A DNA stretch of 43,575 nt from a virus, in IMG/VR virus record IMGVR_UViG_3300020215_000025. The stretch is one strand, 5' to 3'. Shown one piece after another: positions 26,062-43,104 of the stretch. Numbering within the stretch: position 1 is the first letter of the stretch; the number at the start of each line of letters is the position of its first letter. A program made the position numbers and the translations under genes. The notes under the pieces were generated by a model. It searched no databases. It was given only the letters and a program-made list of their open reading frames with translations, and had not been told where the DNA came from.

Positions 26062-27288
26062 TTAAGCCACAGGTCCAAATTGACCGCCCAATTGTCCATA
26101 CCCAAGATATTTATGAACTTTTCCGCTCGTCAAACTTCTGGATTCTTTCGGTTTAAGTAAACGCGGATTCCAGGGAGCGATATCTGCGTTCTTCTTTTTA
26201 AGGCTCTTGATCTCATCAGAGTAGAACCCAAAGTATTTGTCAGCGTCTTTTGTTTTGCCCTGATAGGCCATAATCTTAGAAACGGAAAGAAGGATGATCG
26301 CTTCGTCAAATTCTTGACCAAGTTCGTGAATGTCTCCATCATTCACTAAGCGCCAAGGGTCTTTGTAATATTCGACGTTGATATTGAAGACGCGAGTTGG
26401 AAGAGGCCAGATTTGAAGTTTCTTGTACATGATATTGCTAGTCGCATCGCCAGCCGGAAGGACAGCGACTATCGTATTGGAAGAGTTTGCGTCAACTGTA
26501 ATGCGGCCAACAGAGGATGACGCCTTGGATACACGCTCAACCTTGGAGAAGGATTTGGACCCACTTACGGCACCTGTTCCCGTAACCGTGATTGTCTCCT
26601 GGTCAGGATAGCCAGCTACGATGCCGGTTATTGTGATCGTAACAGAGGTATCAGAAGCAGATGAAGAGTAGACTCTGAGCACGCTTGCCTCAAGCGGCTG
26701 TTCAATAACGTTATCTTCTCCCCACTGACGCCAGTAGAGGGGGGTATTTCCTTCCTCGATTGTGACACCGCTTCCGTAGAAATCCTCATCCGTTACGTAG
26801 TGCATGACATACGGATACCCGTAGTCTTCGTGCCACAACATTGAAATTCTGCCAGCCTGAATAGGAACGTTGTACTCCTCGCGTCCATATACTTTGTATG
26901 TTTGGGTTGTAGAAGTAGTCCCATCGTAGGCTGGAGAAACTGTTAGGGTGGTTTCACCCGTAATTGTTGCGATTGTGAAAGTTTTGCTTGATCCGCCAAG
27001 CTCAATGCGGCGCCCTACTTGAATACCGTTCGTAATGAGTGCTGCGCCTGTAATCGTGACGCTGTTGGAGTTTTCCGTAACACTTACAGCTCCGCTTCCT
27101 GTTGAGTATTCAGCTTCAGTCGTAATAGTTGCTTTTCTGCGGAGGTTTCTCCAGTTACATTCGCGCCCAACACGGAATAAAGATGAGTTTACGATATTAT
27201 CTGTAGTTGTGTTGTACTCCGTTCCGCTTTGTCCCTGAGTTGCTCTTTGCTTAACCTCAGTTTTTAGATCACTAAAAAGTAAGCTCAT
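26062..27288 (-). CDS. Virion structural protein (408 aa; adaptor or tail candidate)
   Basis: Track ORF; T/S/V/G-rich beta protein in the tail module. Confidence 0.55.
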   Translation of the reverse strand: MSLLFSDLKTEVKQRATQGQSGTEYNTTTDNIVNSSLFRVGRECNWRNLRRKATITTEAEYSTGSGAVSVTENSNSVTITGAALITNGIQVGRRIELGGSSKTFTIATITGETTLTVSPAYDGTTSTTQTYKVYGREEYNVPIQAGRISMLWHEDYGYPYVMHYVTDEDFYGSGVTIEEGNTPLYWRQWGEDNVIEQPLEASVLRVYSSSASDTSVTITITGIVAGYPDQETITVTGTGAVSGSKSFSKVERVSKASSSVGRITVDANSSNTIVAVLPAGDATSNIMYKKLQIWPLPTRVFNINVEYYKDPWRLVNDGDIHELGQEFDEAIILLSVSKIMAYQGKTKDADKYFGFYSDEIKSLKKKNADIAPWNPRLLKPKESRSLTSGKVHKYLGYGQLGGQFGPVA

Positions 27289-27402: not shown

Positions 27403-27606
27403 TCAGTCCTTCTTTTTAGAGGGTTTCGGACCCCAAGCACAAGGGCGACAACAAGGCCGGTTATTAACTGCAAGCAAAATAAAGTCATTGCTTCCGCAGG
27501 TATTGCAAATATAAGAGAGGCAGTTGTTCTTAGTAAGGACCAAAACGAACGCCTCAGTATTTTTGTCCACAGTGTTTCTCCGCCGTTCTTTAAACTCCAT
27601 CACCAA
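27403..27606 (-). CDS. Small Cys-rich protein (67 aa)
   Basis: Track ORF; CLSYICNTCG...CCRPC. Confidence 0.5.
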   Translation of the reverse strand: MVMEFKERRRNTVDKNTEAFVLVLTKNNCLSYICNTCGSNDFILLAVNNRPCCRPCAWGPKPSKKKD

Positions 27607-27896
27607 ACCGCCAGGTGAAGGATGAGTCCTGCAAGAGCGATTGCAAAGAGGGCGAGGCTGAAGTATCCCCAGAATGGATGCTTCATAATGAAATCCTTGT
27701 ATTTCGTTGATATCGTCTTGCCTCGCTTTATGAAGTAAGCAAGCTCGAACACAAGGACGTTTACTGCCACACTGATCTTGAACCAGCCCCAGACAGAGCC
27801 GCCTTTTGAGAAATCTATTGCGGCAGATGCAATGGCTGCGATAATGAGAATCAAGAGTCCAACAGTTCGCGCAATTCCTCCCAAAGTCATCGCCAT
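27600..27896 (-). CDS. Membrane protein, about 3 TM (98 aa; holin-like)
   Basis: ATG 27896 shares TAATG with the upstream stop; GLLILIIAAIASAAI, ISVAVNVLVFELAYF, FSLALFAIALAGLILHL. Confidence 0.6.
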   Translation of the reverse strand: MAMTLGGIARTVGLLILIIAAIASAAIDFSKGGSVWGWFKISVAVNVLVFELAYFIKRGKTISTKYKDFIMKHPFWGYFSLALFAIALAGLILHLAVW

Positions 27897-28174
27897 TAGG
27901 AACTCCTCTTCTTCTTCCTTATTGCAGCGCCAAGCGTTGACAGGAGTACGACAAGACTCGCGTATCCGACTCCTGCCTTTGCCGCTTTGCCAGCCCACGG
28001 AACACCGGATAAAGAAGCCACATCTTCAGCTCGTTGCCCGTATTCTTTTGAGCGTTCAACCGCTTCAGTACGGCACGCGGTATCCGCAAAGCACTCGGCG
28101 ACATTCATGCGCTGTTCCTGAAACCAGGCACATCCAGCCAAACTTAGGAATGCGATCAGTACGACGCCCCTCAC
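27896..28174 (-). CDS. Lipoprotein with C-terminal TM segment (u-spanin-like, 92 aa)
   Basis: MRGVVLIAFLSLAGC lipobox; C-terminal GYASLVVLLSTLGAAIRKKKR; GTGA coupling to the upstream gene. Confidence 0.6.
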   Translation of the reverse strand: MRGVVLIAFLSLAGCAWFQEQRMNVAECFADTACRTEAVERSKEYGQRAEDVASLSGVPWAGKAAKAGVGYASLVVLLSTLGAAIRKKKRSS

Positions 28175-28344
28175 TTGATTGCCGCCCGGAGCGTGGCGAG
28201 ACCGGCTCCTGTAAGAAGCGCAACGAGCTGGTCATAAGTTGACTGATCAATGAAACCGGCGTACTTAGCAAATACAAGCACAGCCATAATCGCGGCGATG
28301 ATGTAGGTCTTCTTTCCTGCTAAGAAACTCAGAATCTTATCCAT
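28171..28344 (-). CDS. Small 2-TM membrane protein (57 aa; holin/antiholin-like)
   Basis: AGGAGG upstream; MDKILSFLAGKKTYIIAAIMAVLVFAKYAGFIDQSTYDQLVALLTGAGLATLRAAIK. Confidence 0.55.
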   Translation of the reverse strand: MDKILSFLAGKKTYIIAAIMAVLVFAKYAGFIDQSTYDQLVALLTGAGLATLRAAIK

Positions 28345-29166: not shown

Positions 29167-29682
29167 TTATTCAATATAAATAACGCCGCCGAAACGGACG
29201 TTAGCCGGGTTTGTGGCCCATGTTGGATTGATGCTTTTTATTTCGATGTAATCACCTGCGACGACCGCAATGCTTAAGCTCGTGTTTATCCAGGTTCTGA
29301 ACGCTGCCGTTGATGCAACAGTTTGAATGAGTGTGTCGGTCGTGTTGTTAAGACGAACGTACAAAGACCAGCTTTCTCCGGTTCCTGCGGTTGCTGCATG
29401 AGCTACGATCTGAGCAACTTTGATCGTTCCGGTCTTTGGAATGTAAATGCGTGAAATGGCCGCTGTGGAGGATGGCGCTACGCCAGCGAGAGAACCGAAA
29501 TAGATTGTTTGAGCGTCCGTAGTGGTCGCTAAATTAGCAGCTGTTACTGTTAAGGCATAACCAAGTCCAGCTCCACCGGCTGAAGGTGTATAGGCTTCAA
29601 ATTCTGAATCTTGTGCATTCCTGCGAACGCTTTGTCCTGCTCCTACTACTAAATTAGATGAAATTTCTCCGAAGGTAGCCAT
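29167..29682 (-). CDS. A/T/G/S-rich beta protein (171 aa)
   Basis: Track ORF; GGAG upstream. Confidence 0.55.
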   Translation of the reverse strand: MATFGEISSNLVVGAGQSVRRNAQDSEFEAYTPSAGGAGLGYALTVTAANLATTTDAQTIYFGSLAGVAPSSTAAISRIYIPKTGTIKVAQIVAHAATAGTGESWSLYVRLNNTTDTLIQTVASTAAFRTWINTSLSIAVVAGDYIEIKSINPTWATNPANVRFGGVIYIE

Positions 29683-30533
29683 TATGCGAGCAACCCGTAT
29701 GCTTGCAAATCTTGAATAAGCGTTCCGACGACATCTGCCAGCTCATCAAGCGTTGTTGCGTTTGCGTCATAGCTGCGGTCAGTGGTCACATTGCTTGGCG
29801 TGTATGCGCTTGGACGCGCAACGGCAGCGGCTCCCAAAAATCCAATCATAGGCGCTGATCCACTTGCTTCAATCCGTATCGCTTCCCTTGCCGCTGTATC
29901 CCAAACTCGAAATATTCCACGCGCTTTTCGTGAAGCGTCTGTTGAAGTGGCCCAGGCGGTATCTATGTCAACTTGTTCCCGCGCTGTGGATGTTGAACTC
30001 ACTCCATGGAGCTGGATCAACGCCGCCGTTTGAGACGAAACACCACGGAACACCCCGGCCTTTGAGGCTGAGTCTTTCGCTTCGAAAATGATGCTGCCAC
30101 CGCCCAGCAATATTTCGCGCATTCTTACGCCGTTGTTATCAATGGAAAAGTCCAGCAACCGTGTTCCGGCTAATGAAATGCTAAACCCGCTATTAGAGAC
30201 ATAACCTGGATTTCCAGAACTTGGATTCCTGGCCTGGATCGAGAGTGTTTGTCCGTGTGGAGAAGCGGCCCGAATTGTGAGCGTTCCGTTATCCGTGTTG
30301 TCAAATTGAAACATGGTTCGGCTTCCACTTTTGATGAGAAACGAGCCGTTGACGGTGGACCCATCGCCAAGTGTCAGTTCACCGCTGCCGTTGTAGGTGA
30401 GGCCGGGATTGTGCTGCGCGAGATTTCCAGAGGAATCGACATAGAGGACAGAGCCAGACGTGCCTGAGCCTATTGCATCTCCAATATCAATCGTAAACGG
30501 AACTGCTGGATTCTCAATTCTGAAATCTGTCAT
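29682..30533 (-). CDS. Tail fibre / collar-like protein (283 aa)
   Basis: GSGTSGSVLYVDSSGNLAQ and G/S/T repeats; C-terminal LDELADVVGTLIQDLQAYGLLA. Confidence 0.6.
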   Translation of the reverse strand: MTDFRIENPAVPFTIDIGDAIGSGTSGSVLYVDSSGNLAQHNPGLTYNGSGELTLGDGSTVNGSFLIKSGSRTMFQFDNTDNGTLTIRAASPHGQTLSIQARNPSSGNPGYVSNSGFSISLAGTRLLDFSIDNNGVRMREILLGGGSIIFEAKDSASKAGVFRGVSSQTAALIQLHGVSSTSTAREQVDIDTAWATSTDASRKARGIFRVWDTAAREAIRIEASGSAPMIGFLGAAAVARPSAYTPSNVTTDRSYDANATTLDELADVVGTLIQDLQAYGLLA

Positions 30534-30796
30534 GAGCCTGCGCTGGACTTACTGTATTGAGCTGTTAAGTTTCCAGAAGACGAAAGGCCGTTAATCGCAC
30601 CCTTGAAGATGCGATCTCCGGCCAAGGTCATGTTTCCTCCCGCTGCAATGTAGGCATCATTCGCAGTTGCATCGGACCCGAAAGCAACATAGAGCTTTGA
30701 AGTTGCGTGCGTGTTTGTGATTACGACAAGCACCCTACTGTAATCAGCGGGAACTATCTCAGTTGACGTTGTGGCTGAGACCGTAACTGCTGGCAC
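30530..30796 (-). CDS. Small beta-rich protein (88 aa)
   Basis: Track ORF, coupled. Confidence 0.5.
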   Translation of the reverse strand: MPAVTVSATTSTEIVPADYSRVLVVITNTHATSKLYVAFGSDATANDAYIAAGGNMTLAGDRIFKGAINGLSSSGNLTAQYSKSSAGS

Positions 30797-30797
30797 T

Positions 30798-31250
30798 TTA
30801 CGCCCTCTGTTTTAATGCCTGGTTAGGAACGTCTGAAGGGTCTCCGAAATCACCGTAACGATGTTGACCTTTTCCGGAACGATCTTCTCCACCGGCAACT
30901 TCTTTAATTGATTTCTTGCGAGAAGGATTCTTGTGCTGATTTACAACTTCAGCTTTTTTTTCAGCCTCTTCTTCAATCTTCTTAGTTTCAACACCGTGCA
31001 TAACGCTCAAATATTCATCAACAGACTTAAATCCCAATTCACGCGATTGCCGAATCAGATCTGGATTCATGCGAAAATCCTGACCAAGATATTCCACGCC
31101 TTCTTGCTCTAAAATTTCTTGCGCTGCTCGGTCTGGACCTTCGTAAACAGGCTTACGACCAGCGGATTGATCTTCTATTGTGAAGTTCGGATTAACTGCA
31201 AACTCTTTTGCCGGAAACCATTTACCGCCTTTAGAAATCCATGTAGGCAT
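30798..31250 (-). CDS. Hypothetical protein (150 aa)
   Basis: Track ORF; charged C-terminal half. Confidence 0.55.
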   Translation of the reverse strand: MPTWISKGGKWFPAKEFAVNPNFTIEDQSAGRKPVYEGPDRAAQEILEQEGVEYLGQDFRMNPDLIRQSRELGFKSVDEYLSVMHGVETKKIEEEAEKKAEVVNQHKNPSRKKSIKEVAGGEDRSGKGQHRYGDFGDPSDVPNQALKQRA

Positions 31251-31266
31251 TTATTTCTCCTTTTAT

Positions 31267-31623
31267 TTATGGCAGAATCACTGCGATTGCGGTGCAACGA
31301 GCTGTTGCTTGCGTTGTAGCTGCGCCGTCAACGGTTACGTTAAGAACAGTGTTTGCGGACAAGTCGTAGCCTTCGTCTCCAAAGTCCACCAAGTAAACTC
31401 CAACCGCATCTGCATCAGCTTCAAAGAAGCGAGTTCCGCCAGCTCCATCTTCAAGAGCAACTTCACCGCCTCCTCCAACCGCCGCGACCGTTACTTGCAC
31501 GATTGCTTTCTTGATGCGCAGCTTTTTTTCAGCTCCAGGCGCAGCAATAACCGAAGCGTCAACTGCTCCGTTGGCTGCCTCTGCTGTTCCCTGCTGCTTC
31601 TTATAAATCTCAACTCCTTGCAT
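31267..31623 (-). CDS. Small A/G/V-rich beta protein (118 aa)
   Basis: Track ORF directly downstream of the glycosyltransferase block. Confidence 0.5.
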   Translation of the reverse strand: MQGVEIYKKQQGTAEAANGAVDASVIAAPGAEKKLRIKKAIVQVTVAAVGGGGEVALEDGAGGTRFFEADADAVGVYLVDFGDEGYDLSANTVLNVTVDGAATTQATARCTAIAVILP

Positions 31624-32638
31624 GAATAGCCTCCTTGATTAGTCCATTCGCTTTGGCTTGATTAAACATTTCGAGAACTCTGTGATAAATTGTGTGTTTC
31701 TGCATGGCGTATTCATATCCACATTTCGCAATCGCTTCTCTCTCTTCTTCGTGCTCCAGGTAATAGCGAACCTTCAGAACAAGATCGTCTAAGTTGTCGT
31801 AAAGAACGCAGTGTTTACGGTCAACGAAGATGTCTTCAATGGAGGAGATGCGGTCAGTCATGAGGAAATTGCCGGAACCCATAATTTCGAAGCAGCGCAT
31901 ATTGACATCATCTTTCATGGCTACATTGAACGAGATGCGTGACTTTGCGAAAATCTCACTAGCGGCTTCAAATCTGCGTTGCCCAAAGAAAAAGTTTGGA
32001 AATTCTCGGAAAAGACGGTCCAAGGATTCCAAGCGATTCTCCGAATTGACATGACCCACGAACGCGACATCATATTTCTTTGAAGCCATGTTGAATTTAG
32101 GATAGGCCAAGGGCTCGAAAGCGTGAGGCAGCCAGTAGACGGGAGCAGTCAAGCCGTCTTGTTTCATACGCTCAACCGCATCCTTCTGAGCGCAGAATAC
32201 GAGATCAGATTTCTTTGCGACGCTTAGGCGATAGTCATAGCCCAAATGAGTATCTGACGCCCAATAAACGATTGGAGCACCTGACGGGAATGAGCATTCA
32301 TAGGGCAGGACTCCTGTTAGTCCGTCTTCTCCCCAATCAACCCAAACGTGCATATCAAACTGACCATATTGCTTGAATTCATTTCCTTGAGGACGCAGAT
32401 GCACAACTTCAATGCCGTCTGAATCTAAGTTCTCAAGAATCCATTTCGCCATTTCTTCAGCGCGCGGGTCTAATAGATTCTTGGAGTTTGGGAAGGCTCG
32501 AATCAGAGACTTGTTCTGGTTTCGGCGCAGCATTACGTCGCAGAAATGTTGTGTGCGTTGCAAGAACGAATCGACGTAAAGCGGATTTCCGTCATTTCTG
32601 CCAAGTTGAGACTCATACCAAACGGCTATTCTGAGCAT
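31610..32638 (-). CDS. Glycosyltransferase, CgeB/Glyco_trans_1_2-like
   Basis: C-terminal FNVAMKDDVNMRCFEIMGSGNFLMTD...YDNLDDLVLKVRYYLEHEEEREAIAKCGYEYAMQKHT is typical of this family; ATG 32638 after GGAGAGGAAG. Confidence 0.7.
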   Translation of the reverse strand: MLRIAVWYESQLGRNDGNPLYVDSFLQRTQHFCDVMLRRNQNKSLIRAFPNSKNLLDPRAEEMAKWILENLDSDGIEVVHLRPQGNEFKQYGQFDMHVWVDWGEDGLTGVLPYECSFPSGAPIVYWASDTHLGYDYRLSVAKKSDLVFCAQKDAVERMKQDGLTAPVYWLPHAFEPLAYPKFNMASKKYDVAFVGHVNSENRLESLDRLFREFPNFFFGQRRFEAASEIFAKSRISFNVAMKDDVNMRCFEIMGSGNFLMTDRISSIEDIFVDRKHCVLYDNLDDLVLKVRYYLEHEEEREAIAKCGYEYAMQKHTIYHRVLEMFNQAKANGLIKEAIHARS

Positions 32639-33936
32639 GTTACTTCCTCTCCGGTTGTTGAGACCCATGTGGAAGGACACGAAATATCAACCTGCTTCTC
32701 AAAGCAGGACACGAAACTGATTCCGTTCCCTGTCGATTGCGCAAATGTTTGACTAAGCCCAAGCGTTTCAGCGATTGATTTAAGACTCGACATCGTGAAA
32801 GCGTGAAGGTGATCGAAGGAAAGCGGAATCCCAGATGTTACTTCCTCATCAGGACAAGCGATAATTAGCTTTCCTCCAGGACGGAGAGCTTTCATCCAGT
32901 TACGAAGTGTTTCTACAGGGTTGATGATGTGTTCAAGAATATGCCGCGCAATCACGACATCAAATGAGGAATCCTTTACCGGAAGCGGTTTTGAGACATC
33001 GGCCACCATATCAGCTACAGAGCGTTCATTTGAGTATGGGAGAAGCGGAATCTTTTCGCCTTTTGGAACACGATCAATTCCAACAGACTGCTCAACTGTT
33101 TTGCGAAATCCGCAGCCAAGTTCAAGGACTTTATCTTCAGGCGTTACGAGGGAGCGAATTAAGTTTCCTTCAATGTCTTCTGGAACTGTGTTCATATTGC
33201 AATAAGTTATGAGCTGCTGCGAAATAGATGTAAAAAACTCCTTAAAGCCGTGTTTGCGGATAAGCGCTTTGTTTGTGTCTTCACTCATTTCTTTGGAGTT
33301 CCAGCCACCCGCACGATCAGATGTTCCTCGAACACGCTCTCCTGTCTTGAAACCGTGATGAATAATAAAAGCACTTGGGTCAAAAACGAGTCTGTAGCCG
33401 CCTTTACGGAGACGAATAGAGAGATCGAAATCATCACCGCCAGGAAGGGACGCATCAATACCTCCGACCGCATCTAAAGCAGAACGCCTCACAATGACGC
33501 AAAAGAAAATCATCCATCGTAGTTCTGAAAAAGTAACGGGTATATTGGGGTGATAGATTGACTGGAGACCGGCTGCCGTAGTTGTTGATGGACCTACAGC
33601 TCCAACGCTAGGGTCTCTAAAATTACTGAGCAGACGCGAGTAAAAAAGAGCCTGAGACACGACGGGGATGAACGTATCATCATTCTGGAAGCAGACAAAA
33701 GGCGCATCGGACGCTTCAAGCCCGGCTTTAAGACCGCCTTCCCAACCAAGGTTTTGTCCAGTCTTAATAACGCGAAGACCGGGAAACTCCTGAATGGGTT
33801 GATCTCCGTTATTGACAACGATGATTTCTGCAATTCCACTATCAATAACGCTTGTCTTCATGATGGAAGCAATGCACGGATTGAGGAACTGCGGATTATT
33901 CCAAGTCGGGATAATGATAGAAAGAACCGGCTTCAT
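32626..33936 (-). CDS. Bifunctional GT2 glycosyltransferase / class I SAM methyltransferase
   Basis: N-terminal LSIIIPTWNN...FQNDD...GGDDFDLSIRLRKGGYRL (GT-A). C-terminal VLELGCGFRKTV...FDVVIARHILEHI...LRPGGKLII (methyltransferase motifs I and post-I). ATGA coupling at 33936. Confidence 0.8.
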   Translation of the reverse strand: MKPVLSIIIPTWNNPQFLNPCIASIMKTSVIDSGIAEIIVVNNGDQPIQEFPGLRVIKTGQNLGWEGGLKAGLEASDAPFVCFQNDDTFIPVVSQALFYSRLLSNFRDPSVGAVGPSTTTAAGLQSIYHPNIPVTFSELRWMIFFCVIVRRSALDAVGGIDASLPGGDDFDLSIRLRKGGYRLVFDPSAFIIHHGFKTGERVRGTSDRAGGWNSKEMSEDTNKALIRKHGFKEFFTSISQQLITYCNMNTVPEDIEGNLIRSLVTPEDKVLELGCGFRKTVEQSVGIDRVPKGEKIPLLPYSNERSVADMVADVSKPLPVKDSSFDVVIARHILEHIINPVETLRNWMKALRPGGKLIIACPDEEVTSGIPLSFDHLHAFTMSSLKSIAETLGLSQTFAQSTGNGISFVSCFEKQVDISCPSTWVSTTGEEVTCSE

Positions 33937-34706
33937 CCGAGCACCAGATGAGCGGAACCCGCTTCCCACTTCATGGGTTCTCGCTTATGACCCATTGCGT
34001 TAGAGTCTTGATAGTTCATTTCTTTACGCACCTTCTCAACGTAAGCTTCTGTAACTTCTATAGGGTGCGACAAGTGACCAAGCTTCGTTGCTGTGTCCAT
34101 AAACACGCGGAAGCCAGCTTTGCGGGCTTTGTGGCAGAAAAGAACGTCTTCGCCGGTGCCAGAGGAGCACATGAATCGGGGAGCCGGAATTGCGCGAACT
34201 ACCTTCATATTAATAAGGACTGCGCCGAACCCAACCGCATCACATTCGATGAGGCAGTCTTTCGGGTACTTATCTACGTGCCTATTAATGAAGTAGGGAG
34301 TTTGGCTTACGGGGTCCCATCCGTCTTCAATCTCGTAAATGACGGCTTTATGAGGAAAGTTGCGCGTGAAAGCAAGAGGAGCCACCATATCAACCTGGTG
34401 CGCATACAGCCTCTCAAAAAGTTCGTTGGGACAAGTCATATCATCATCAATCATGAAGAGGTAATCGGCTTCGATTTCGAGCGCGAGCTTTGCAGCCTCT
34501 TCACGCGCAAGCGGTGTGAAGATGCGACCTAAATCAATAAAGTGGAATTCAAAACGAGGATTACGTTTCTCTTGAATGCCACGCTCTTGCAGCGTTCCAA
34601 GATAGAAGAAGTTTTCTAAGCGGTTCGTATAGGATTTGCACGGAGGAGAACCCTCGTTCGGAATACAAATCGCTACCTTTACAACCTTTCCTTCTTCTTG
34701 ACTCAC
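33933..34706 (-). CDS. GT2-family glycosyltransferase
   Basis: VAICIPNEG..., DXD region YLFMIDDDMTCP, GEDVLFCHKARKAGFRVFMD. Confidence 0.8.
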   Translation of the reverse strand: MSQEEGKVVKVAICIPNEGSPPCKSYTNRLENFFYLGTLQERGIQEKRNPRFEFHFIDLGRIFTPLAREEAAKLALEIEADYLFMIDDDMTCPNELFERLYAHQVDMVAPLAFTRNFPHKAVIYEIEDGWDPVSQTPYFINRHVDKYPKDCLIECDAVGFGAVLINMKVVRAIPAPRFMCSSGTGEDVLFCHKARKAGFRVFMDTATKLGHLSHPIEVTEAYVEKVRKEMNYQDSNAMGHKREPMKWEAGSAHLVLG

Positions 34707-34933
34707 AATGCCCCCTTAATGATTAGTTCCACTTCATCTCGTTTAATACAAACCGGCTGCCTGACTTTGTGGCCGCCGTGCTTTGGTAAATGCTCAGGAT
34801 TATTCGTAACGATCACACCGCATGTTTCACAGCGATGCACTTGAATCTCTTTCCCATCTATGACAAGGTGGGAGGTTGGAGTAAGTTCAAACTTCACTAC
34901 GTCTTCTTCAGTCCAACCGTCCCACCAGGCCAT
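34703..34933 (-). CDS. Small CxxC protein (76 aa)
   Basis: Track ORF; HRCETCG; coupled to the GT2 gene. Confidence 0.5.
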   Translation of the reverse strand: MAWWDGWTEEDVVKFELTPTSHLVIDGKEIQVHRCETCGVIVTNNPEHLPKHGGHKVRQPVCIKRDEVELIIKGAL

Positions 34934-34943
34934 ATAATTCTCC

Positions 34944-35396
34944 TTAGATTGCGCGCACTAAACCCTTGCAATACGACTGAGCCATAGTCGAAACTGCAAC
35001 GGGAGTGGAAGCTGCAATGACGTAACGATAGAACAGCGTGCTGACCGCTTGATCAGTGAGCGAGCTGAAGAAAGTTCCAGGCACTGCGCCCGGTTTCAAG
35101 AAGTCTCCCGCCGTAATCGTGATGGAGCTGCCAACGTGCGAAATGAGCACAGAGTTAGCAAGACCCCAGCATGTCGCAAATCCGTACCCGTTAATGGGAA
35201 CGTCAGATTCGGACACGCCGATGAAACCTTCTTGATTGGCTGCTGCATATAACACGGCAGACAACGCATCAATGGAAGCGCCAGCTTGGCACCAAGAAAC
35301 GCCCATACCGGTCGTGATAGAGCCACCGCCATCTACGTTTTTGAAGAGGACTTTCACCACTTCGGAGTTAGTACGATTAAGTTGCTGAATCTGCAT
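34944..35396 (-). CDS. Head-associated beta protein (150 aa; decoration or cement candidate)
   Basis: Track ORF two genes downstream of the capsid gene. Confidence 0.5.
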   Translation of the reverse strand: MQIQQLNRTNSEVVKVLFKNVDGGGSITTGMGVSWCQAGASIDALSAVLYAAANQEGFIGVSESDVPINGYGFATCWGLANSVLISHVGSSITITAGDFLKPGAVPGTFFSSLTDQAVSTLFYRYVIAASTPVAVSTMAQSYCKGLVRAI

Positions 35397-35423
35397 TTTG
35401 AATCTCCTTTAGGCTGTAACTTG

Positions 35424-35441
35424 GACGCGGATTACCGCGCC
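35424..35441 (-). other. Intercistronic tetraloop hairpin (RNA-level)
   Basis: Minus strand reads GGCGCGG-TAAT-CCGCGTC; one pair is G-U only on the minus transcript. Confidence 0.35.
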
Positions 35442-35466
35442 TCCAGTCCCAGGCCGATTGATTGAG

Positions 35467-35739
35467 TTATGCGTATGCGATAAGAAATCTTCCGCTACTT
35501 ACCGCGTCATGCGGATAGAAAGTTACGGTCGTCAAAGCGCCAGAGGTTGAAGCTGTCCAGGGAACGCTCGCAAGCTCGCCAGTGACCGAATCCTGCGCTG
35601 AAAACTGAGCGAAATAAACACGCGCTCCGCCCACAGTCACAGTTCCGCTATCATCACCCACCGCGCTTGACCAGTCGCCCGCTAAGAAGTTCAGACTTCC
35701 GCCGCTCTGCTGCTTAACGTTAGAGGTTGCGATTGCCAT
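35467..35739 (-). CDS. Small beta-rich head-associated protein (90 aa)
   Basis: Track ORF immediately downstream of the capsid gene. Confidence 0.5.
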   Translation of the reverse strand: MAIATSNVKQQSGGSLNFLAGDWSSAVGDDSGTVTVGGARVYFAQFSAQDSVTGELASVPWTASTSGALTTVTFYPHDAVSSGRFLIAYA

Positions 35740-35751
35740 TTATGCCTCCTC

Positions 35752-36705
35752 TTACGCTGTGATAGATTGCAGTTTAAATTGACGCCGCCTGTTGTTTGTG
35801 ACAGGTCCGGTTGTACGATGCAGAATGAACGCGACTTTAGCAGTCTGGTTCACAGGCATCATAAACGGAGTCATCGCAAAGTCGGTCTCGCTGTCAACGT
35901 TATAGTCCACATAGTTCATGTTCAGACCGAACCAGAGACCGGAACCGATAAAGTTTCCGTACACGACGGGTGTGCCTTTAAAGGTCAGGTTCTTGAAACC
36001 AGCATTAGCGGTCAGGTTGCCGTTGGAGATGCGCTCCAAAGGAAGCCGGGTCGCTTCAAAACGCTGAAAGTTCGTCTTATTCGTGATGTGGATTGTGACG
36101 TTATCGCTTGTGGCGCTTGATGCGACAGCGTACTCAGCCGTAGCAAGGTCGGTTAAACCCTGAGCTGCGAAAGAGCCTGAAGTCGTCACGGTCGCTTGCC
36201 AGAACGTGTCAGTTCCGCCTGCGATAGTGCCGAAGGTTCCTGTATTGACCATTGTTTCGAGGTCAGCGAGGTTGTTGGCATTAGCAGTCGGAGTGGACAT
36301 GGCTTGCTCTGCGCGTTTCGAAACGGCTAACTCTGCGCGCTGAACCTTCTCGCCAACAAGATCGATGATTTTGTGTTCATCGCCGGAGTTGATGCGTTCC
36401 TCATCGCGGGTTAGCTGAATCGGCTCGTACAGGTTCTGCCAGCGAAACTCAACAAGCGTCTCAGCGTCAGACTGAGTTGTATTCAGCTGAGTTGCGCCGA
36501 GATAGAAACCGCCGTTGTTTTGGTCAGATTTAATGAGCGTGTAGACAACAGATACACCTCCGTTAATGAGGCGCTTGCGTTCATTCAAAATCTTAAGCAC
36601 GACATTAGAGTTGTATACGTTATCCGTCGCTGTCTTCGAGTAATCGGCGATTGAGGTCGCAAGCGACGCATCAATCGTGGACGGGATGAATAATTCGTTT
36701 GCCAT
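35752..36705 (-). CDS. Major capsid protein (317 aa)
   Basis: Position directly after the scaffold gene, size and composition typical of HK97-fold coat proteins; call is mainly by synteny. Confidence 0.7.
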   Translation of the reverse strand: MANELFIPSTIDASLATSIADYSKTATDNVYNSNVVLKILNERKRLINGGVSVVYTLIKSDQNNGGFYLGATQLNTTQSDAETLVEFRWQNLYEPIQLTRDEERINSGDEHKIIDLVGEKVQRAELAVSKRAEQAMSTPTANANNLADLETMVNTGTFGTIAGGTDTFWQATVTTSGSFAAQGLTDLATAEYAVASSATSDNVTIHITNKTNFQRFEATRLPLERISNGNLTANAGFKNLTFKGTPVVYGNFIGSGLWFGLNMNYVDYNVDSETDFAMTPFMMPVNQTAKVAFILHRTTGPVTNNRRRQFKLQSITA

Positions 36706-36717
36706 TGTTTAAAACTC

Positions 36718-37644
36718 CTATTTGCGAGGTAATGCGCCTTGCTTCTGTTTCTGTAGATTAAAGAGAGCGAGACGCTTGAAATAGTTTCGCGGTTGTTCGC
36801 CAGGTTCCATCTTTGGCTTATCTTCCCCTGTCGTAAGACCGTTCGAACCTATTTCGGTTGAACCGTTAAGTTTTTCTTTGAATTGACTTTGACCGTCTTG
36901 TATTCCGAATTGATAGGTGCGTTCCATGTAGCGCTCAAAGTTGAGCCCCTTGTGAACAAGCTCCCTAAGTTTTGCAGTGTCGATTTGACCACGATCAAAA
37001 TCTTCTGCAAACTTATCAATTTGCGTAGGGTCATAGTCGGGATACTTCTCTCTGATTTGATTGTCGAACTGAGCAACCTGCATTTTGTTGTTGGAAGCAA
37101 GTAGGCTGTTAACCTTTCCTTCCAGCTGTTGAAATGCCGCTTTCTCAGTCGGACTTAATGCAGACCATTCCTCAGTTGTACCAGTCCAGTTTCCCGGAGC
37201 CTGGCTCTGAGCAAGAGCCTGTGCGGAAGCAACAAAACGAGGGTCTTGAAGGATTTGCTGCACACGTTCAGGAGACCACTCCTGCTGTCGCGTCAGCTCC
37301 TCAAGGCGTTGCGATACCGCCTTTTCCTTTTCTGCTACTTCCATAAATTTTTTATTGAAACCTTTCTCAAAATGCTTGTAGAGATCTTGAACAACCTTCT
37401 TTGCAACCGGATCTTGAATCTTCTCAATGTCGGAGGAGTTGTAGAGCGTTTCTTCCTGAGCCTGTGATGCAGATTCCTTCTTCTGCTCAGGAGACATGCG
37501 TTTAAGTAAATCGTCAGTCTTGACTGGCGAATGTTTAGTTTCTTGAACGGGCGGCTGCTGATTAGACTGGCTTCCTTGCGTTGGAGCCGCTTGTTGCTTA
37601 GTAGGCTCTTGCGCCGTAGGTTGTGGCACAGTTTGTGATGACAT
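36718..37644 (-). CDS. Scaffolding protein (308 aa)
   Basis: Q/E/K-rich, helical, low-complexity N-terminus; located between portal block and capsid gene; GGAGG upstream. Confidence 0.65.
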   Translation of the reverse strand: MSSQTVPQPTAQEPTKQQAAPTQGSQSNQQPPVQETKHSPVKTDDLLKRMSPEQKKESASQAQEETLYNSSDIEKIQDPVAKKVVQDLYKHFEKGFNKKFMEVAEKEKAVSQRLEELTRQQEWSPERVQQILQDPRFVASAQALAQSQAPGNWTGTTEEWSALSPTEKAAFQQLEGKVNSLLASNNKMQVAQFDNQIREKYPDYDPTQIDKFAEDFDRGQIDTAKLRELVHKGLNFERYMERTYQFGIQDGQSQFKEKLNGSTEIGSNGLTTGEDKPKMEPGEQPRNYFKRLALFNLQKQKQGALPRK

Positions 37645-37759
37645 TGAATCCTCCGGTATTACTTGGTTAATTTATTTTGACCAAAAAAGAAGGCGCAGAA
37701 GAGTTTGGGGTGACTGAAAAGGTTGATGGACCAACCCGTCCCTTATTCCTCTAACTGCG

Positions 37760-37773
37760 CCTAAACGTTTAGG
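37760..37773. promoter_or_regulatory. 14-bp perfect palindrome in the capsid-operon leader
   Basis: CCTAAACGTTTAGG. Confidence 0.4.
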
Positions 37774-37846
37774 GCTTAGCTTTTTTGGTTATCTCAACCT
37801 GTGATCAGCAGGAGAGTTTTACTTCACGAACTACCTTGGTATAGCG

Positions 37847-37918
37847 CGCCGCCTGAAAAGCGGCGGCGTAAAAACAAAAGCATAAAAAGCATAAAAATCA
37901 AAAACGGTTTATAAAGAA
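37847..37918 (-). promoter_or_regulatory. Composite element copy R3 upstream of scaffold/capsid genes
   Basis: Hairpin CGCCGCC-8 nt-GGCGGCG 37847-37868; the reverse complement of 37875-37918 matches 18062-18107 at about 39 of 46 aligned positions. Confidence 0.5.
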
Positions 37919-37925
37919 TAAACCG
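37900..37925 (-). terminator. Candidate intrinsic terminator ending the terL-portal transcription unit
   Basis: Minus strand reads CGGTTTAT-tcttt-ATAAACCG followed by TTTTT. Confidence 0.45.
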
Positions 37926-38020
37926 GCTCGAACGTGCGTCTTACTCCAAATAGCTGTGACGCCTACAGTAACACTTTCCTTCTTCTTCGACTGGAGCTGA
38001 GCACTCCAAACACGCTTTCA

Positions 38021-39244: not shown

Positions 39245-39387
39245 TAGTTTAGTCCGTCCATCCATGCGTTATAAGATTTTCCGCAATCACAGTCATAAAA
39301 ACCTGGCAGTATACGCGCATACATCACACCGCTGCATTCCAGGCACATCATGCTCGGAGTTCCTATCGTAAGAATCCACTCACTCAC
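39244..39387 (-). CDS. Small zinc-ribbon protein (47 aa, GTG start; or ATG 39351)
   Basis: MMCLECSGVMYARILPGFYDCDCGKSY; GTGA overlap with the portal stop. Confidence 0.4.
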   Translation of the reverse strand: MSEWILTIGTPSMMCLECSGVMYARILPGFYDCDCGKSYNAWMDGLN

Positions 39388-41438
39388 AGCGTACCGACAG
39401 ATTCAACGCCCGGAGCCTTTAATCGTACCGGCTGCCCTTCTCTTGGCGCATTCTTCTCAGCTTCCATCTCAGCAAGTTGTGACTGCACCATGATAAGCTC
39501 ATTAAGCATGTCTGAAACGCGACCTTCTAACTCAAAGATCTTCTTCACAGCCATGTAAACACTGAGGCGAGCGCCATGATCTTGCCCTTCAGCCGGCGGA
39601 GAAGGAGGAGGAGCGCCCATAAGAGCCGCTTCCGTATTCGCCTGAGCCGCACGAAGCTCAGCTACGGATGCGAATCCTTCGGACTCTTCCGGTCTAATAG
39701 AACGAAATACTTCAGGGTCACGAATCTTAAGACGTAAAAGCAAATTCTCAATGATTGGCGATATGTTGAACGTCTTACCTTCCTGCTGAAGTTTCTGGAA
39801 AATGCCAGGATTGTTTATTGCCTCAAACATAAGGTTAAGCACAGCCTGTAACTCCTGAATCTCCTTTTCCGGATTCTCAGGAAGCATCGAGATCACATCA
39901 ATCTCAACATCTACATCTGCCTGAACCTCTTCCTTCGATGGCTTTTCCGACCACTGCGTGTCTAAGCTACCCGTAATGCGTACCGCTTCCTCATACGGAA
40001 GAAACTGTTTCAGCAACTGGTTTATATATAGAAGAGAGTCCTTCAAGAAATCACTCATTAAATCCTGCCGGAACGCTGGACGGGCTGAAGAACCAGCCAC
40101 GCGCTGCTTCACAGAATAGGCAGACTCTTCGCCGGACCGCAAAACACCTTTCCGAATCTCATTCACACCCGACTTCTCATCTAAATTCTGCTGAATACGG
40201 CCATCAAGCATATACAACTCACCCGATGCCTGACCGCCAGGAGTCGCAATCGCAATCTTTCCTGTCGCAGCTCCCTCAACGCCAATGATCTGCTGCTCAC
40301 CCGATTCAATGCGCGCCACTGTCTGCTCATCCATATTCGTTTTATCAAACAGAATAACGACCTTGGAGTTACACTGCGCATTCCTGAGCTGCATATTCAC
40401 AATCAGGTTCTTATGATCCACAATCTCGCCAAAAACTTCCGTATCAGCCATGCCGAATATTTGGTCAGGCACTTCGTTAAACATGAGCACCTTGCCCGGC
40501 CAGCCTTCCGCCTTATACGGCCATGCGTTTTGACGCAAAGGCTTTTCCTGCTCCGGCGTATAGAGAATAATGTTCCCTTTACTACCGGAACGCTTCTCTT
40601 TCTTTGAAGGTCTTCGCAAAATCTCGTAAACGCGGGCGAAGCGTCCGCCAAGCCCCTTCTTGTATTCCTCATCCGTATAATCAAGGAGTGTTTTAGAACG
40701 TGAACTGAGCACCTTCGTATCAAATCCACCGTTCCCCATCGGACTCGGTTTATCCATATCAAGCGTTACGTTGTAACCCGGCTGCCCTTTAAGTTTAGGG
40801 TCAACATCAAGCGTGTCGTCTTCCTTTAAATCCTGTAAAGGCACTTCAAACACACGCGCAATCCAGCGCGCTTCATCAAGATTCGCAATCGTTACAGACG
40901 GGTCAAAGAGAAACTGGCGAGGAGAAAGCCTGCGCACGAACACCTTCTCATCCTGAATATATATAGATTGCTCCTCCGTCATTCCAAACTCACCCTTGTA
41001 GCCGTGCCACAGGATTCCATGCTTAAAGATAAGGGCGTCTAAGAGGCACCTACGCACCTCTTCCTTGTAACGAATCTGAGAAACGGTATAGTTCAGAATC
41101 GCTTCCTGCGTCTTAGCCGACTTGTTCGAGTCCATTACGACGGGAACCATGTTTCCGGTAAGCGGGTCACGCCTTTTTACAATGTAATTCTTGTTGCGCG
41201 GCTTCAGGAAGGCTCTAGGATTGCGGAAATAAATAGAAGGAAGTTCGTACTGCACAATCGGGTAAAGTTCGTTTAGGATGATGTCCCAATTTGATGCGAT
41301 AGCGGGAACATGCTTTCCTGTGTAGCGCTCCATCGCTTCCCGCATCTGCGGAAGCAGCTTATCCTCATTGACCTTTTCAGCCATGCGGATTTCATTGCGC
41401 AAACTATGAAGTTGCTCTTTGGAGAGTTTTTCGCTCAC
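39384..41438 (-). CDS. Portal protein (684 aa)
   Basis: Large ORF directly downstream of terL; size and acidic C-terminal half are typical of portals; call mainly by synteny. Confidence 0.75.
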   Translation of the reverse strand: MSEKLSKEQLHSLRNEIRMAEKVNEDKLLPQMREAMERYTGKHVPAIASNWDIILNELYPIVQYELPSIYFRNPRAFLKPRNKNYIVKRRDPLTGNMVPVVMDSNKSAKTQEAILNYTVSQIRYKEEVRRCLLDALIFKHGILWHGYKGEFGMTEEQSIYIQDEKVFVRRLSPRQFLFDPSVTIANLDEARWIARVFEVPLQDLKEDDTLDVDPKLKGQPGYNVTLDMDKPSPMGNGGFDTKVLSSRSKTLLDYTDEEYKKGLGGRFARVYEILRRPSKKEKRSGSKGNIILYTPEQEKPLRQNAWPYKAEGWPGKVLMFNEVPDQIFGMADTEVFGEIVDHKNLIVNMQLRNAQCNSKVVILFDKTNMDEQTVARIESGEQQIIGVEGAATGKIAIATPGGQASGELYMLDGRIQQNLDEKSGVNEIRKGVLRSGEESAYSVKQRVAGSSARPAFRQDLMSDFLKDSLLYINQLLKQFLPYEEAVRITGSLDTQWSEKPSKEEVQADVDVEIDVISMLPENPEKEIQELQAVLNLMFEAINNPGIFQKLQQEGKTFNISPIIENLLLRLKIRDPEVFRSIRPEESEGFASVAELRAAQANTEAALMGAPPPSPPAEGQDHGARLSVYMAVKKIFELEGRVSDMLNELIMVQSQLAEMEAEKNAPREGQPVRLKAPGVESVGTL

Positions 41439-41478: not shown

Positions 41479-41510
41479 AGATTTTTATCGTATAATAGAA
41501 GATTTTTATC
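41479..41510. repeat. Two direct copies of AGATTTTTATC in the terL-portal spacer
   Basis: 41479-41489 and 41500-41510; the minus strand also carries TTGACA at 41474-41479. Confidence 0.5.
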
Positions 41511-43104
41511 TAAACGAGAGACCGGCTGGAACTTCGAACCATTTATGCTTTCCGGGATACTTATGAGTACGCTTTTGGACGGCAAGATGCGGTTTCTTGG
41601 TCTCTATCATGATGCGCCTGACGCGCTCAAATTCATCTTCTTCAGCATGGGGGGAGGAAGCGGCTTTGGGGTACTGGAGAAGCTGAACCAAACCTTGCGC
41701 TGCATCGGCCAGATCGTCATGCGCGCCGTATGGGAAGCGCGTTAGCTGGTACTCCAGCTCGCCCATATCTCGCTTGTGGTACATTACGTGTTGGGCGTAA
41801 CGCGGCTGCAACCTGATCTCTATACGCCTAATCTTGTCAGCGTCCCATACGAGTTCCTCGGTAAGAAGGAACTTCCCTCTCTTTTTCATCTCGCGTTTCA
41901 AAATGTACTGCACGACGTTCTCTAAGGCTGATTTTTCGAAACCGACCTTGACCGTACCGCTCGTTAACTTCTCCAGGTGTTCAGACATTACGAACAGATG
42001 CTCGGCTAGTTCTTCCGGTCTCATTCCTTTTTTAGTGACGTAGGATTCGAGCAGGATTTCCGAGTCTGGCGTAATGAGGCCGGGCATGAGGACCGACGAG
42101 TCTGACTCTCGTTTTTCTTTCCACGCGAGGTCGCACGCGATGGCAGCGCGGCAGTCTTTGAGGGAGCCTTTGGAGATGGGGCGATTATCTCGATCAAATA
42201 GCACATAGTCTTGTCCTTCTGCTTTCCAGTACCTGAAGTCTTCTTTCTTGAACCGGACGTTTGCTCCGGCAACAGGGTCGTTTTGGTATTCTTTCGCAAA
42301 GACAGACGGTTTCGTGCGTTCGAGCTCACGCAAGTAATCCAGGCTCCACTTTTCCGGCCAAAGAGAGCGAACATTGGGCTTACCCCAGTTTTCCCCTGCG
42401 CGGAAGAATATTTTTGAATACTCATGGTAATGCTCCTTTGAGGCGAGTTTCGCCATTTGACAATCATCATGCAGAATAGTTCCAACGAATATGTATTGGC
42501 AGACACCCTTTTCACCGGCTGGAATGAGCGCCGTATCGAAGTCTTCCTGTAATTGGAAGCGTCGCTCAATCGAGCGTACAAGTTCGTCATCTTCCATATC
42601 GTCTCCGATGATAAGGTCGGGCCGGTAAGCTCCAAACTTCACGCCACGTATGGAGCCGATTTGGTCTACGCCACGGCATAGAACAAGCGTCTTGAAGCCA
42701 TCGGGATGCTTGATAATCGAATCGCCTTCCGCATCCTTAATGATCTCGATGCCGGGAAAATGTTGACGAAACTCCTGATTCTCCCTTATTTCTGCCTTGA
42801 TAGACTCCAGCTGCATCGCGGCTTTCTTAAACGTATTCGATATGATCACGATGAAACGTTTCCTCTTGAACACGATGGCATGAAACGGGTAGAGAAACAC
42901 AAGCATGGTCGACTTCGCCGACTCACGAGGGGCTGCAACAGCTAACTGCCTGGACTCCATCGCTGCATCGACCATAATGAAATGAAAGGGCGGCGTTTTG
43001 AGCCTGAAATGGTGCTTGAAGTACATCTTTCCCCAAAGCATGGGGTCTTCAGCAAGGAATGGGTATAAATCGAGGTGTTCTTCCTGCGGCTTACTCTTCG
43101 GCAT
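41506..43104 (-). CDS. terL: Terminase large subunit
   Basis: ATPase region VAAPRESAKSTML and DLIIGDDMEDDE, plus a C-terminal nuclease half with acidic motifs. ATG 43104 (MPKSKPQEE) is preferred over the track start 43152. Confidence 0.85.
   Translation of the reverse strand: MPKSKPQEEHLDLYPFLAEDPMLWGKMYFKHHFRLKTPPFHFIMVDAAMESRQLAVAAPRESAKSTMLVFLYPFHAIVFKRKRFIVIISNTFKKAAMQLESIKAEIRENQEFRQHFPGIEIIKDAEGDSIIKHPDGFKTLVLCRGVDQIGSIRGVKFGAYRPDLIIGDDMEDDELVRSIERRFQLQEDFDTALIPAGEKGVCQYIFVGTILHDDCQMAKLASKEHYHEYSKIFFRAGENWGKPNVRSLWPEKWSLDYLRELERTKPSVFAKEYQNDPVAGANVRFKKEDFRYWKAEGQDYVLFDRDNRPISKGSLKDCRAAIACDLAWKEKRESDSSVLMPGLITPDSEILLESYVTKKGMRPEELAEHLFVMSEHLEKLTSGTVKVGFEKSALENVVQYILKREMKKRGKFLLTEELVWDADKIRRIEIRLQPRYAQHVMYHKRDMGELEYQLTRFPYGAHDDLADAAQGLVQLLQYPKAASSPHAEEDEFERVRRIMIETKKPHLAVQKRTHKYPGKHKWFEVPAGLSFR

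Follow-up and report, generated by a model that had tools for sequence, protein, structure and literature searches.

The virus record IMGVR_UViG_3300020215_000025 of IMG/VR was analyzed over its whole length of 43,575 nucleotides (the window). Downstream of the major capsid gene, the window carries three chained glycosyltransferase (GT) genes, one of them fused to a methyltransferase (MT) domain, preceded by the gene of g150a, a 150 aa protein predicted to decorate the capsid. The block is read as a phage-encoded cassette for O-glycosylation of the virion, probably of the capsid surface, with optional methylation of the sugars; from gene order, sequence motifs and modelled folds, a probability of about 0.6 is assigned to this reading. 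An initial annotation of the same DNA, made from the letters alone, had proposed the modification of virion proteins with methylated sugars. Late-operon coupling, linkage to a decoration protein, the lack of membrane and DNA-modification partners and the existence of analogues support this proposal, while the target, along with the order of the enzymatic steps, the identity of the sugars and the biological benefit, is what we infer from them.

The three enzymes, called GTA1, GT2-MT and GTB in their order downstream of the capsid gene, are encoded by overlapping minus-strand open reading frames (ORFs), located where the initial annotation had placed them. The distance between the end of the capsid gene, identified by its match to phrog_9953, and GTA1 is 1,046 nt, in line with the 1 kb estimated earlier. 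The stop of a small ORF, g76, and the start of GTA1 share the sequence GTGA (34703-34706), the stop of GTA1 and the start of GT2-MT the sequence ATGA (33933-33936), both overlaps being 4 nt long. The GT2-MT stop (32626-32628) and the GTB start (ATG, 32638-32636) overlap by 13 nt, the GTB stop and the start of g118 (ATG, 31623) by 14 nt. The chaining earlier described for the three enzymes from the ATGA overlap is therefore found at all consecutive junctions, and involves the five genes g76, GTA1, GT2-MT, GTB and g118. The GT2-MT and GTB starts are likely internal ATGs, giving rise to proteins of 436 and 342 aa (the maximal ORFs are 447 and 356 aa long). Promoter- and terminator-like sites are not enriched over shuffled sequence in the stretch scanned, and the block is compatible with one transcription unit. 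Since it is flanked by the capsid gene and a SU10-type adaptor gene, the module lies between head and tail genes, as had been stated.

The block is not a chance assembly, because conservation of the catalytic motifs is 95% or higher across the 33-38 homologues compared and the arrangement recurs in more than 100 viral contigs. The motifs quoted in the initial annotation (IDDDMTCP, GEDVLFCHKARKAGF, VLELGCGFRKTV and LRPGGKLII) are all present. No transmembrane segment was found in the cassette (19-residue Kyte-Doolittle mean above 1.6), and no flippase, GtrA/GtrB-like protein, polymerase or any other membrane protein is encoded in or beside it; the lack of flippase or Gtr partners had already been remarked, and no integrase was found.

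Synteny was monitored in IMG/VR from three independent seeds, GT2-MT (17 loci), a g150a profile (37 loci) and a GT-A profile (best 80 of 213 loci). In over 100 contigs the order of the genes is constant: capsid, (g90), g150a, (g76), GT-A, GT2(-MT), GT-B. The full block resides in 50 out of 50 GT-A-seeded loci having enough flanking DNA on both sides, the exceptions being all cut by the end of a contig. A survey of how widespread the synteny is had been suggested in the initial annotation, and invariant order over this number of contigs is the answer; the arrangement is less rare than had been implied, as at least 213 IMG/VR stretches carry GTA1 relatives, and an insertion in cluster J phages was described in 2013 (PMC3706429).

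Most contigs with the cassette have a divergent backbone (22-27% identity in TerL, 26-35% in the capsid protein), whereas identity to the window is about 45-60% in g150a and the enzymes. Where the backbone is close (four contigs, capsid 70-77%), cassette identity is only about 50-54%. Cassettes are about 50-57% identical to that of the window whether the capsid proteins are 74% or 31% identical. Pairwise identities of g150a co-vary with those of GT-A and GT-B (r 0.63 and 0.72, respectively; Mantel p 0.0005), but only weakly with those of the capsid protein (r 0.17, p 0.08). Three contigs with a related backbone (L021-L023; capsid 54-61%, portal 50-54%) lack g150a as well as all three enzymes. 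Because identities co-vary, backbone identity does not track them, and absence is joint in L021-L023, g150a and the enzymes behave, at the sequence level, as one unit with a history decoupled from that of the backbone.

In L021-L023, this site behind the capsid gene is occupied by an unrelated protein of 259-277 aa. The L021 protein weakly matches phrog_29386 ('virion structural protein'). That these proteins are divergent or fibre-bearing homologues of g150a was considered and discarded, no relationship being detected (hhalign probability 0.3). L022 and L023 encode a different phrog_1574 GT-A enzyme, L022 also a B12-binding radical S-adenosylmethionine (SAM) enzyme. The replacement region may be an alternative capsid-modification cassette.

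The g150a protein matches no Pfam, PHROG or NCBIfam family, and tblastn against 50,697 GenBank phage records returned nothing. Its 290 homologues are devoid of Pfam domains, and identity ranges from 58 to 83% among the best 120 of the 290. The AlphaFold2 (AF2) model (predicted local distance difference test score, pLDDT, 72; predicted template modelling score, pTM, 0.68) was compared by Foldseek with PDB structures. Each of the top 17 matches is a capsid accessory protein (probability 0.85-1.0, TM-score 0.46-0.59, E 1e-3 to 0.16), including HFTV1 gp18, the Pam3 cement protein, the N-terminal base of phi29 gp8.5, the decoration proteins of T1, FCWL1 and Sf11, and the stabilising protein of TW1, lambda gpD being a weaker match; the proteins named here have E values of 1e-3 to 1e-2 and TM-scores of 0.5-0.59. 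In BFVD, 62 matches (E<=1e-3) were found, among them stand-alone structural proteins of 130-170 aa and, in many cases, N-terminal domains of long fibre proteins. As the predicted fold matches only capsid accessory proteins in PDB, and in view of the BFVD matches, g150a is regarded with moderate confidence as a capsid decoration or cement protein. We know of no evidence that HFTV1 gp18, phi29 gp8.5, TW1 or lambda gpD are glycosylated, or travel with GTs. The two most conserved Ser/Thr-rich motifs of g150a (residues 22-30 and 87-98) fall largely in non-regular segments of the model, with DGGGSITTG (22-30) and SSITITAGD (90-98) as invariant loops, and g150a appears to be the most likely acceptor of the enzymes. 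The list of possible acceptors given in the initial annotation lacks this best candidate, and the ORFs at 31267-31623, 30530-30796, 29167-29682 and 22863-23648 have no assignable structural role.

GTA1 reaches the threshold of no Pfam or NCBIfam family (no match at E<=0.01), and matches phrog_1574 and phrog_12406, both 'glycosyltransferase'. Weak matches to Anp1 (PF03452, which we take to be CAZy GT62) were found in 40 of 45 homologues (E<=0.01, best E 6.7e-8), GTA1 itself giving none; the remaining five weakly match Glyco_tranf_2_3. Searched by sequence against PDB, as single sequence or as profile, GTA1 gave nothing significant. Its AF2 model (pLDDT 89) has a GT-A fold, and Foldseek returned 308 PDB matches at E<=1e-3, GT-A enzymes making up nearly all of the top 50. 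COLGALT1, LH3, STIV A197, mimivirus R699, ppGalNAc-T2 and Mnn9 are at the top (E 3e-10 to 1e-6), Mnn9 ranking 29. Invariant residues are R68, D87-D88-D89, E186-D187 and H211. A single Rossmann-like GT-A domain, the DxD motif and a C-terminal His as putative metal ligand are all recognizable, as in metal-dependent GT-A enzymes. GTA1 had been called a GT2; it does not reach the PF00535 threshold or any other in Pfam, and the model assigns it to the DxD GT-A enzymes, not to a demonstrable GT2. Because its best structural neighbours are mostly polypeptide-directed (collagen hydroxylysine galactosyltransferase, LH3, ppGalNAc-Ts), GTA1 is, on weak evidence, the best candidate for the initiating, polypeptide-directed enzyme; the viral enzymes STIV A197 and mimivirus R699 are neighbours as well. 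GT-A folds being all similar, the fact that enzymes acting on proteins prevail in the top matches is suggestive only.

Searched by tblastn in the GenBank phage records, GTA1 matches cluster J GTs (identity 28%, along half of its length), cyanophages, and Microcystis phage Mel-JY34; Che8 and Corndog are not among the 30 matches listed. GTA1 relatives are located directly downstream of the major capsid gene in Mel-JY34 (PP438425, 5992-6687) and in the Manatee Spring genome MW202711 (5818-6447), where they are annotated as 'hypothetical' or 'putative glycosyltransferase'. Mel-JY34 is an isolated cyanophage, and could serve as a culturable case for capsid glycosylation.

GT2-MT has the two domains recognized in the initial annotation, both above the Pfam cut-off. 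The N-terminal domain matches PF00535, Glycos_transf_2 (51.5 bits, cut-off 23.3; E 1.5e-13), presumably equivalent to CAZy GT2, the C-terminal one PF08241, Methyltransf_11 (43.7 bits, cut-off 21.2; E 4.3e-11). Residues N85-D86-D87 and D168-D169-x-D171 of the GT2 domain, which include the DxD motif, and G274-C-G276, D288 and D309 of the MT domain are conserved in at least 95% of the homologues. The best PDB relative is the glucosyltransferase PglI (9jma, E 1e-8). The MT half matches small-molecule and sugar O-MTs, with a weak, sub-threshold likeness to D-glucose O-MT, and the GT2-MT pair has a similarly weak, sub-threshold likeness to MftF/MftM of mycofactocin glycan synthesis. No mycobacteriophage was matched by GT2-MT in tblastn searches of GenBank phage records. 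In nine loci the MT domain is absent and the GT2 domain is kept. Two stand-alone Methyltransf_24 genes replace the MT domain in L020, and in several other loci one extra Methyltransf_24 gene is found between GT2-MT and GTB, one of these weakly matching rhamnosyl O-methyltransferase/CmcI. Because the MT domain may be present, absent, replaced or supplemented, methylation fits a variable, optional tailoring of the glycan rather than a core catalytic requirement.

GTB matches PF13524 well above the cut-off (87.3 bits, cut-off 25; E 1.2e-24), and is of the CgeB/Glyco_trans_1_2 type, as the initial annotation had it. Its 807 homologues all reside on contigs of up to 48 kb; all 120 listed match PF13524, with additional matches to PF00534 and PF13692 in some homologues. 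Weak matches to GT4-type PDB structures (5i45, 'glycosyl transferases group 1', and TreT) came from the GTB profile. No significant PDB match and no PHROG match were obtained with the single sequence, and the N-terminal half of the protein has no recognized domain.

The following course of events is proposed. Late in infection, the capsid protein, g150a, the candidate accessory protein g76 (76 aa) and three soluble cytoplasmic transferases would be produced from one operon, and a short O-linked oligosaccharide would be built on a capsid-surface protein from host nucleotide sugars and SAM. GTA1 would add the first sugar to an acceptor Ser or Thr, the GT2 domain and GTB would extend the chain, and the fused MT would O-methylate a sugar, as optional tailoring or capping. 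g150a would display the glycan at local three-fold positions of the capsid, the capsid protein being the second acceptor candidate. The sugar coat could alter the particle surface, acting on adhesion, stability or shielding. Mycobacteriophage virions, when glycosylated, are bound less by antibodies, and fewer neutralising antibodies are produced against them.

A tentative extension, against which the odds stand, is that g150a is a dedicated glycan carrier, a sort of 'sugar head fibre'. The base domain which in other phages bears a protein fibre (collagen-like, Mtd-like or tail-fibre-like in BFVD) would here stand alone, and be extended by a variably methylated oligosaccharide. Carrier and enzymes would move and diversify as a unit between distant backbones, conferring to each lineage a capsid 'glycotype'. 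This would be analogous to O-antigen serotypes, with the MT domain, which can be kept, lost or replaced, and the additional Methyltransf_24 genes as the variable part.

Several observations weigh against the assignment of the block to virion glycosylation. The cassette is known from genes alone, all members of the phage group being uncultured. Within one large clade, synteny may in part be due to common descent, and the contrast between joint presence and joint absence amounts to about one evolutionary event, independent gains and losses being few. The g150a model is moderate (pLDDT 72, four of five models not exceeding 61), with Foldseek E values of 1e-3 or weaker, and GT-A folds are all alike, TM-scores being here about 0.45-0.5. 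Host glycans linked to undecaprenyl are a common substrate of soluble GT2 and GT4 enzymes. The GT gene of Mel-JY34 comes right after the capsid gene, no decoration gene being placed between the two, and g150a hence need not be the acceptor. Finally, the R...DDD...ED pattern is common to phage GT-A enzymes glycosylating DNA (bioRxiv 10.1101/2023.12.21.572611).

Some of these points lead to other explanations. The enzymes could act late on lipid-linked or surface polysaccharides of the host (lipopolysaccharide O-antigen, capsule, S-layer), blocking adsorption of progeny or competitors to infected cells and debris, the proximity to head genes being incidental. Pathways for envelope polysaccharides typically include GT2, GT4-like and CgeB-like enzymes, the best solved relative of the GT2 domain, PglI, works on an undecaprenyl-PP-linked glycan, some GTB homologues are named 'glycosyltransferase involved in cell wall biosynthesis' by their sources, and phrog_12406 is filed under 'moron, auxiliary metabolic gene and host takeover'. 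Peripheral GTs of envelope pathways need no transmembrane segment and, as many GT2 and GT4 enzymes are of this kind, the lack of such segments leaves lipid-linked host glycans as a possible target. Remodelling of the host envelope is nevertheless unlikely. The cassette has no flippase, GtrA/GtrB-like protein, polymerase or membrane protein in it or at its sides. As no integrase or lysogeny module was found in the genome, and homologues all reside on contigs of up to 48 kb, none being chromosomal among 185,579 species genomes, the usual setting of seroconversion is absent; neither the membrane partners nor the integrase/attP proximity distinctive of Gtr-type or O-antigen seroconversion were found in the genome. 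Moreover, invariant placement in over 100 contigs and joint loss with g150a would be left unexplained. A different virion target, which is a sub-case of the virion glycosylation model, is quite unlikely. Capsid or tail/fibre proteins would be the acceptor, and g150a a mere neighbour, as the glycosylated proteins reported for mycobacteriophages are capsid and tail-tube subunits, the GT-A relative of Mel-JY34 adjoins a capsid gene directly, and several proteins of the operon (g90, g88, g283, g171, g261) are rich in Ser and Thr (20-25%). However, identity in the cassette and g150a remains about 50% where that of the capsid protein drops to 26-35%, the variation of g150a follows that of the GTs and hardly that of the capsid protein, and backbone relatives with a 54-61% identical capsid protein are without the cassette.

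Sugar hypermodification of DNA is very improbable. GTA1 and GTB would glycosylate hydroxymethylated bases and help to evade restriction, as in T4 and in 5mYOX- or ThyS-linked pathways. DNA-modifying phage GT-A enzymes carry the pattern R...DDD...ED(Y/F), to which R68, D87-89 and E186-D187 of GTA1 correspond, and phages use both GT-A and GT-B folds for DNA glycosylation (bioRxiv 10.1101/2023.12.21.572611); a MT domain is also available in the cassette. However, no ThyS homologue, TET/JBP-type dioxygenase/5mYOX or C5 methyltransferase (C5-MT) was found among ORFs of at least 114 aa in the complete genome, in which several ORFs of 170-387 aa are unannotated and could accommodate a very divergent enzyme; without these genes, no hydroxymethyl acceptor would be made. 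The MT domain is no DNA methylase but a Methyltransf_11 domain of the type for small molecules or sugars, and none of the 50 best fold matches of GTA1 is a T4 beta-GT, TarP or JGT-like structure. Genes for hypermodification reportedly lie in clusters of their own (bioRxiv 10.1101/2023.12.21.572611), whereas capsid genes are the neighbours here.

Table 1. Features of the window and of loci from other contigs (L numbers)
Feature	Position	Strand	Basis or remarks
Early genes	~1-18 kb	+	AAA_25 primase/helicase-like, exonuclease, Sak4-like annealing protein, RusA, HNH, SLT-domain protein, TnpB-like ORF
Late operon		-	In order: TerS-like, TerL, portal, scaffold, capsid, cassette, small proteins, adaptor, tail/virion proteins
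TerS-like ORF (weak)	81-668	-	Precedes TerL across the circular junction
TerL	41506-43152	-	
Portal	39384-41438	-	
Probable scaffold	36718-37644	-	
Major capsid protein, 317 aa	35752-36705	-	phrog_9953 'major head protein' (E 5e-30); bounds the block upstream
g90, small, Ser/Thr-rich (24%)	35467-35739	-	Directly after the capsid gene; no family match
g150a, 150 aa, predicted capsid decoration/cement protein	34944-35396	-	AF2 and Foldseek; between capsid gene and enzymes
g76	34703-34933	-	Overlaps GTA1 start (GTGA); no family match
GTA1, 257 aa, predicted soluble DxD GT-A-fold glycosyltransferase	33933-34706	-	PHROG and AF2 fold
GT2-MT, GT2 (residues 1-200) fused to class I SAM MT (residues 260-400)	32626-33936	-	Pfam
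GTB, 342 aa, Glyco_trans_1_2 (CgeB-type, GT4-like GT-B)	31610-32638	-	PF13524
g118, 118 aa	31267-31623	-	Overlaps GTB stop; no family match
Head-tail adaptor	26062-27288	-	PF24175 SU10_adaptor, 28.2 bits (cut-off 27); downstream boundary of the region
Cassette-less replacement region, L022	7840-10609		
Cassette-less replacement region, L023	11173-12752		
Cassette-less replacement region, L021	11363-12142		
MT-less or modified locus, L020	10951-12999		
MT-less or modified loci, L092, L098, L100, L102-L105			
MT-less or modified locus, L003	1828-2430		
L060			Contig of an Elusimicrobiota metagenome-assembled genome (MAG), 6.2 kb
L061			Contig of a Hydrogenedentota MAG, 4.6 kb

The small proteins next to g150a and the enzymes differ in their association with the cassette (Table 1). 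An ORF of 83-106 aa, 28-46% identical, is found at the position of g90 in relatives both with and without the cassette, and g90 by this distribution belongs to the backbone. g76 is found in many, not all, cassettes (33-50% identity), with conserved residues R34, C35, H52, G54 and H55, and may be an accessory factor; a zinc ribbon was rejected, only one Cys and two His being conserved. Relatives of g118, 42-81% identical, are scattered over very divergent backbones (e.g. L001, L002, L003, L012, L014, L019 and L116). g118 accompanies the cassette in a minority of loci, is present in two tandem copies in L010 and L012, and is perhaps an additional, optional component or one more acceptor. ORFs for HNH homing endonucleases are inserted between the capsid and decoration genes in L009/L018 (7716-8201, L009 coordinates) and in L012 (6855-7466).

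A 127-bp direct repeat is found at both ends of the window (1-127 and 43449-43575), indicating that the contig is a circular assembly, and the genome complete at about 43.45 kb. Further identical copies of the genome reside in JGI, ENA and Logan assemblies. Positions 30500-38000 gave zero blastn matches in the 50,697 GenBank phage records and, as g150a had no tblastn match there either, the phage is without a cultured close relative. The capsid protein is 24-27% identical (tblastn) to the products of capsid genes of Mx8/Mx9, Brucella Tb-like and Stenotrophomonas phages, which are podoviruses. The phage clade is uncultured and podovirus-like, has a SU10-type adaptor, and lies outside the actinophages. 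The N-terminus of the adaptor matches tail-fibre PHROGs. No integrase or lysogeny module was detected among the ORFs of at least 114 aa. Homologues of the cassette genes are missing in bacterial chromosomes among the 185,579 species genomes, in which the g150a profile matched only the two short MAG contigs L060 and L061. Both are probably binned phage fragments, a weak hint at best to host or habitat, and no host was called from them.

Three small ORFs at 27600-28344 (minus strand), each with a predicted transmembrane segment, are located between the small unknown proteins and the adaptor, and may be lysis genes. A protein with a SLT lytic-transglycosylase domain is encoded on the early strand (5943-6662, plus). 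The early region of this lytic-looking phage also includes a TnpB-like ORF (13642-14697, plus), matching PF07282 (Cas12f1-like TNB, E 1.5e-15) and phrog_506 ('transposase').

To our knowledge, only a few phages, all of them mycobacterial, have been shown to glycosylate their own virions. If the proposed role is correct, self-glycosylation would be extended to a large, environmentally widespread clade of uncultured phages, each cassette protein being represented by hundreds of 90%-identity clusters in public metagenomes. A compact four-gene system displaying defined methylated glycans on capsids would become available, of use in engineering phages and in glycoconjugate display. Decoration proteins would gain a new functional class, and a GT-A gene directly after a capsid or decoration gene would be a genomic marker for glycosylated virions in metagenomes.

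Bacillus subtilis CgeB, the namesake of Glyco_trans_1_2, is involved in spore-crust glycosylation, and acts from within the producing cell on an outer shell made of protein. GTB shares with it the C-terminal family PF13524, CgeB differing in being part of a cellular sporulation pathway. Among phages, according to reports citing the primary work (Freeman 2023, via PMC11600133 and PMC12363180), Che8, Corndog and Myrna encode GTs, and the proteins of their capsid and tail tube are glycosylated. Cluster O phages are described as having three tandem GT genes beside an O-methyltransferase gene, and the inventory of three GTs and one MT is the same as here. Mycobacteriophages and the phage analyzed share the use of GTs of their own (three GT domains/proteins here), but belong to different phage groups; here the MT is fused to GT2, and the system is known from genes alone. 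Acceptors are capsid or tail-tube subunits in those accounts, a decoration protein in the present proposal. No close homology was detected, GTA1 reaching, of mycobacteriophage sequences, only cluster J GTs among the matches listed.

In cluster J phages, 8-10 genes are inserted between the capsid and connector genes, including GTs, MTs, and a GT-MT fusion, LittleE gp17 (PMC3706429). The position, from capsid to connector or adaptor, is the same as here, as is the combination of multiple GTs with SAM MTs and a GT-MT fusion, and GTA1 is weakly homologous to one cluster J GT (28% identity, half its length). Unlike here, the cluster J insertion includes a Ser/Thr kinase and a zinc-metalloprotease-like protein, and the MT is N-terminal in LittleE gp17, C-terminal in GT2-MT. 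A link to a decoration protein is not described in that study, in which gene function is predicted only (PMC3706429). A parallel to GT2-MT as an enzyme is PBCV-1 A064R, a GT-GT-MT protein that, as summarized in PMC7826918 (citing Speciale 2020), extends and methylates the glycan of the capsid protein Vp54. Both are virus-encoded, soluble, multidomain proteins combining GT and sugar O-MT, the latter being predicted in GT2-MT. PBCV-1 differs, from the same summary, as a eukaryotic giant virus with N-linked glycans, a double-jelly-roll capsid, other domain families, and genes that do not lie in a structural operon.

The DNA-hypermodification GTs of phages are abundant in IMG/VR, and have 5mYOX, C5-MT or ThyS as neighbours (bioRxiv 10.1101/2023.12.21.572611). 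They share with the cassette the R...DDD...ED GT-A and the GT-B types, whereas here the neighbours are capsid genes, and none of 5mYOX, C5-MT and ThyS was found in the genome. HFTV1 gp18 is a trimeric capsid stabilisation protein related to the base of phi29 gp8.5 (bioRxiv 10.1101/2024.12.09.627619). HFTV1 being the best fold match of g150a, glycosylation of its capsid was considered, and no evidence of it is given in that paper. In predicted fold, g150a resembles HFTV1 gp18, the phi29 gp8.5 N-base, the TW1 capsid-stabilising protein and lambda gpD, and it shares with them the location of the gene directly after the capsid and the size of 130-170 aa; sequence similarity is lacking, and g150a stands alone whereas many of its BFVD relatives bear a protein fibre. 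Compared with all these systems, what is new here is the phage clade, the set of enzymes and, above all, their obligate association with a protein of predicted decoration fold.

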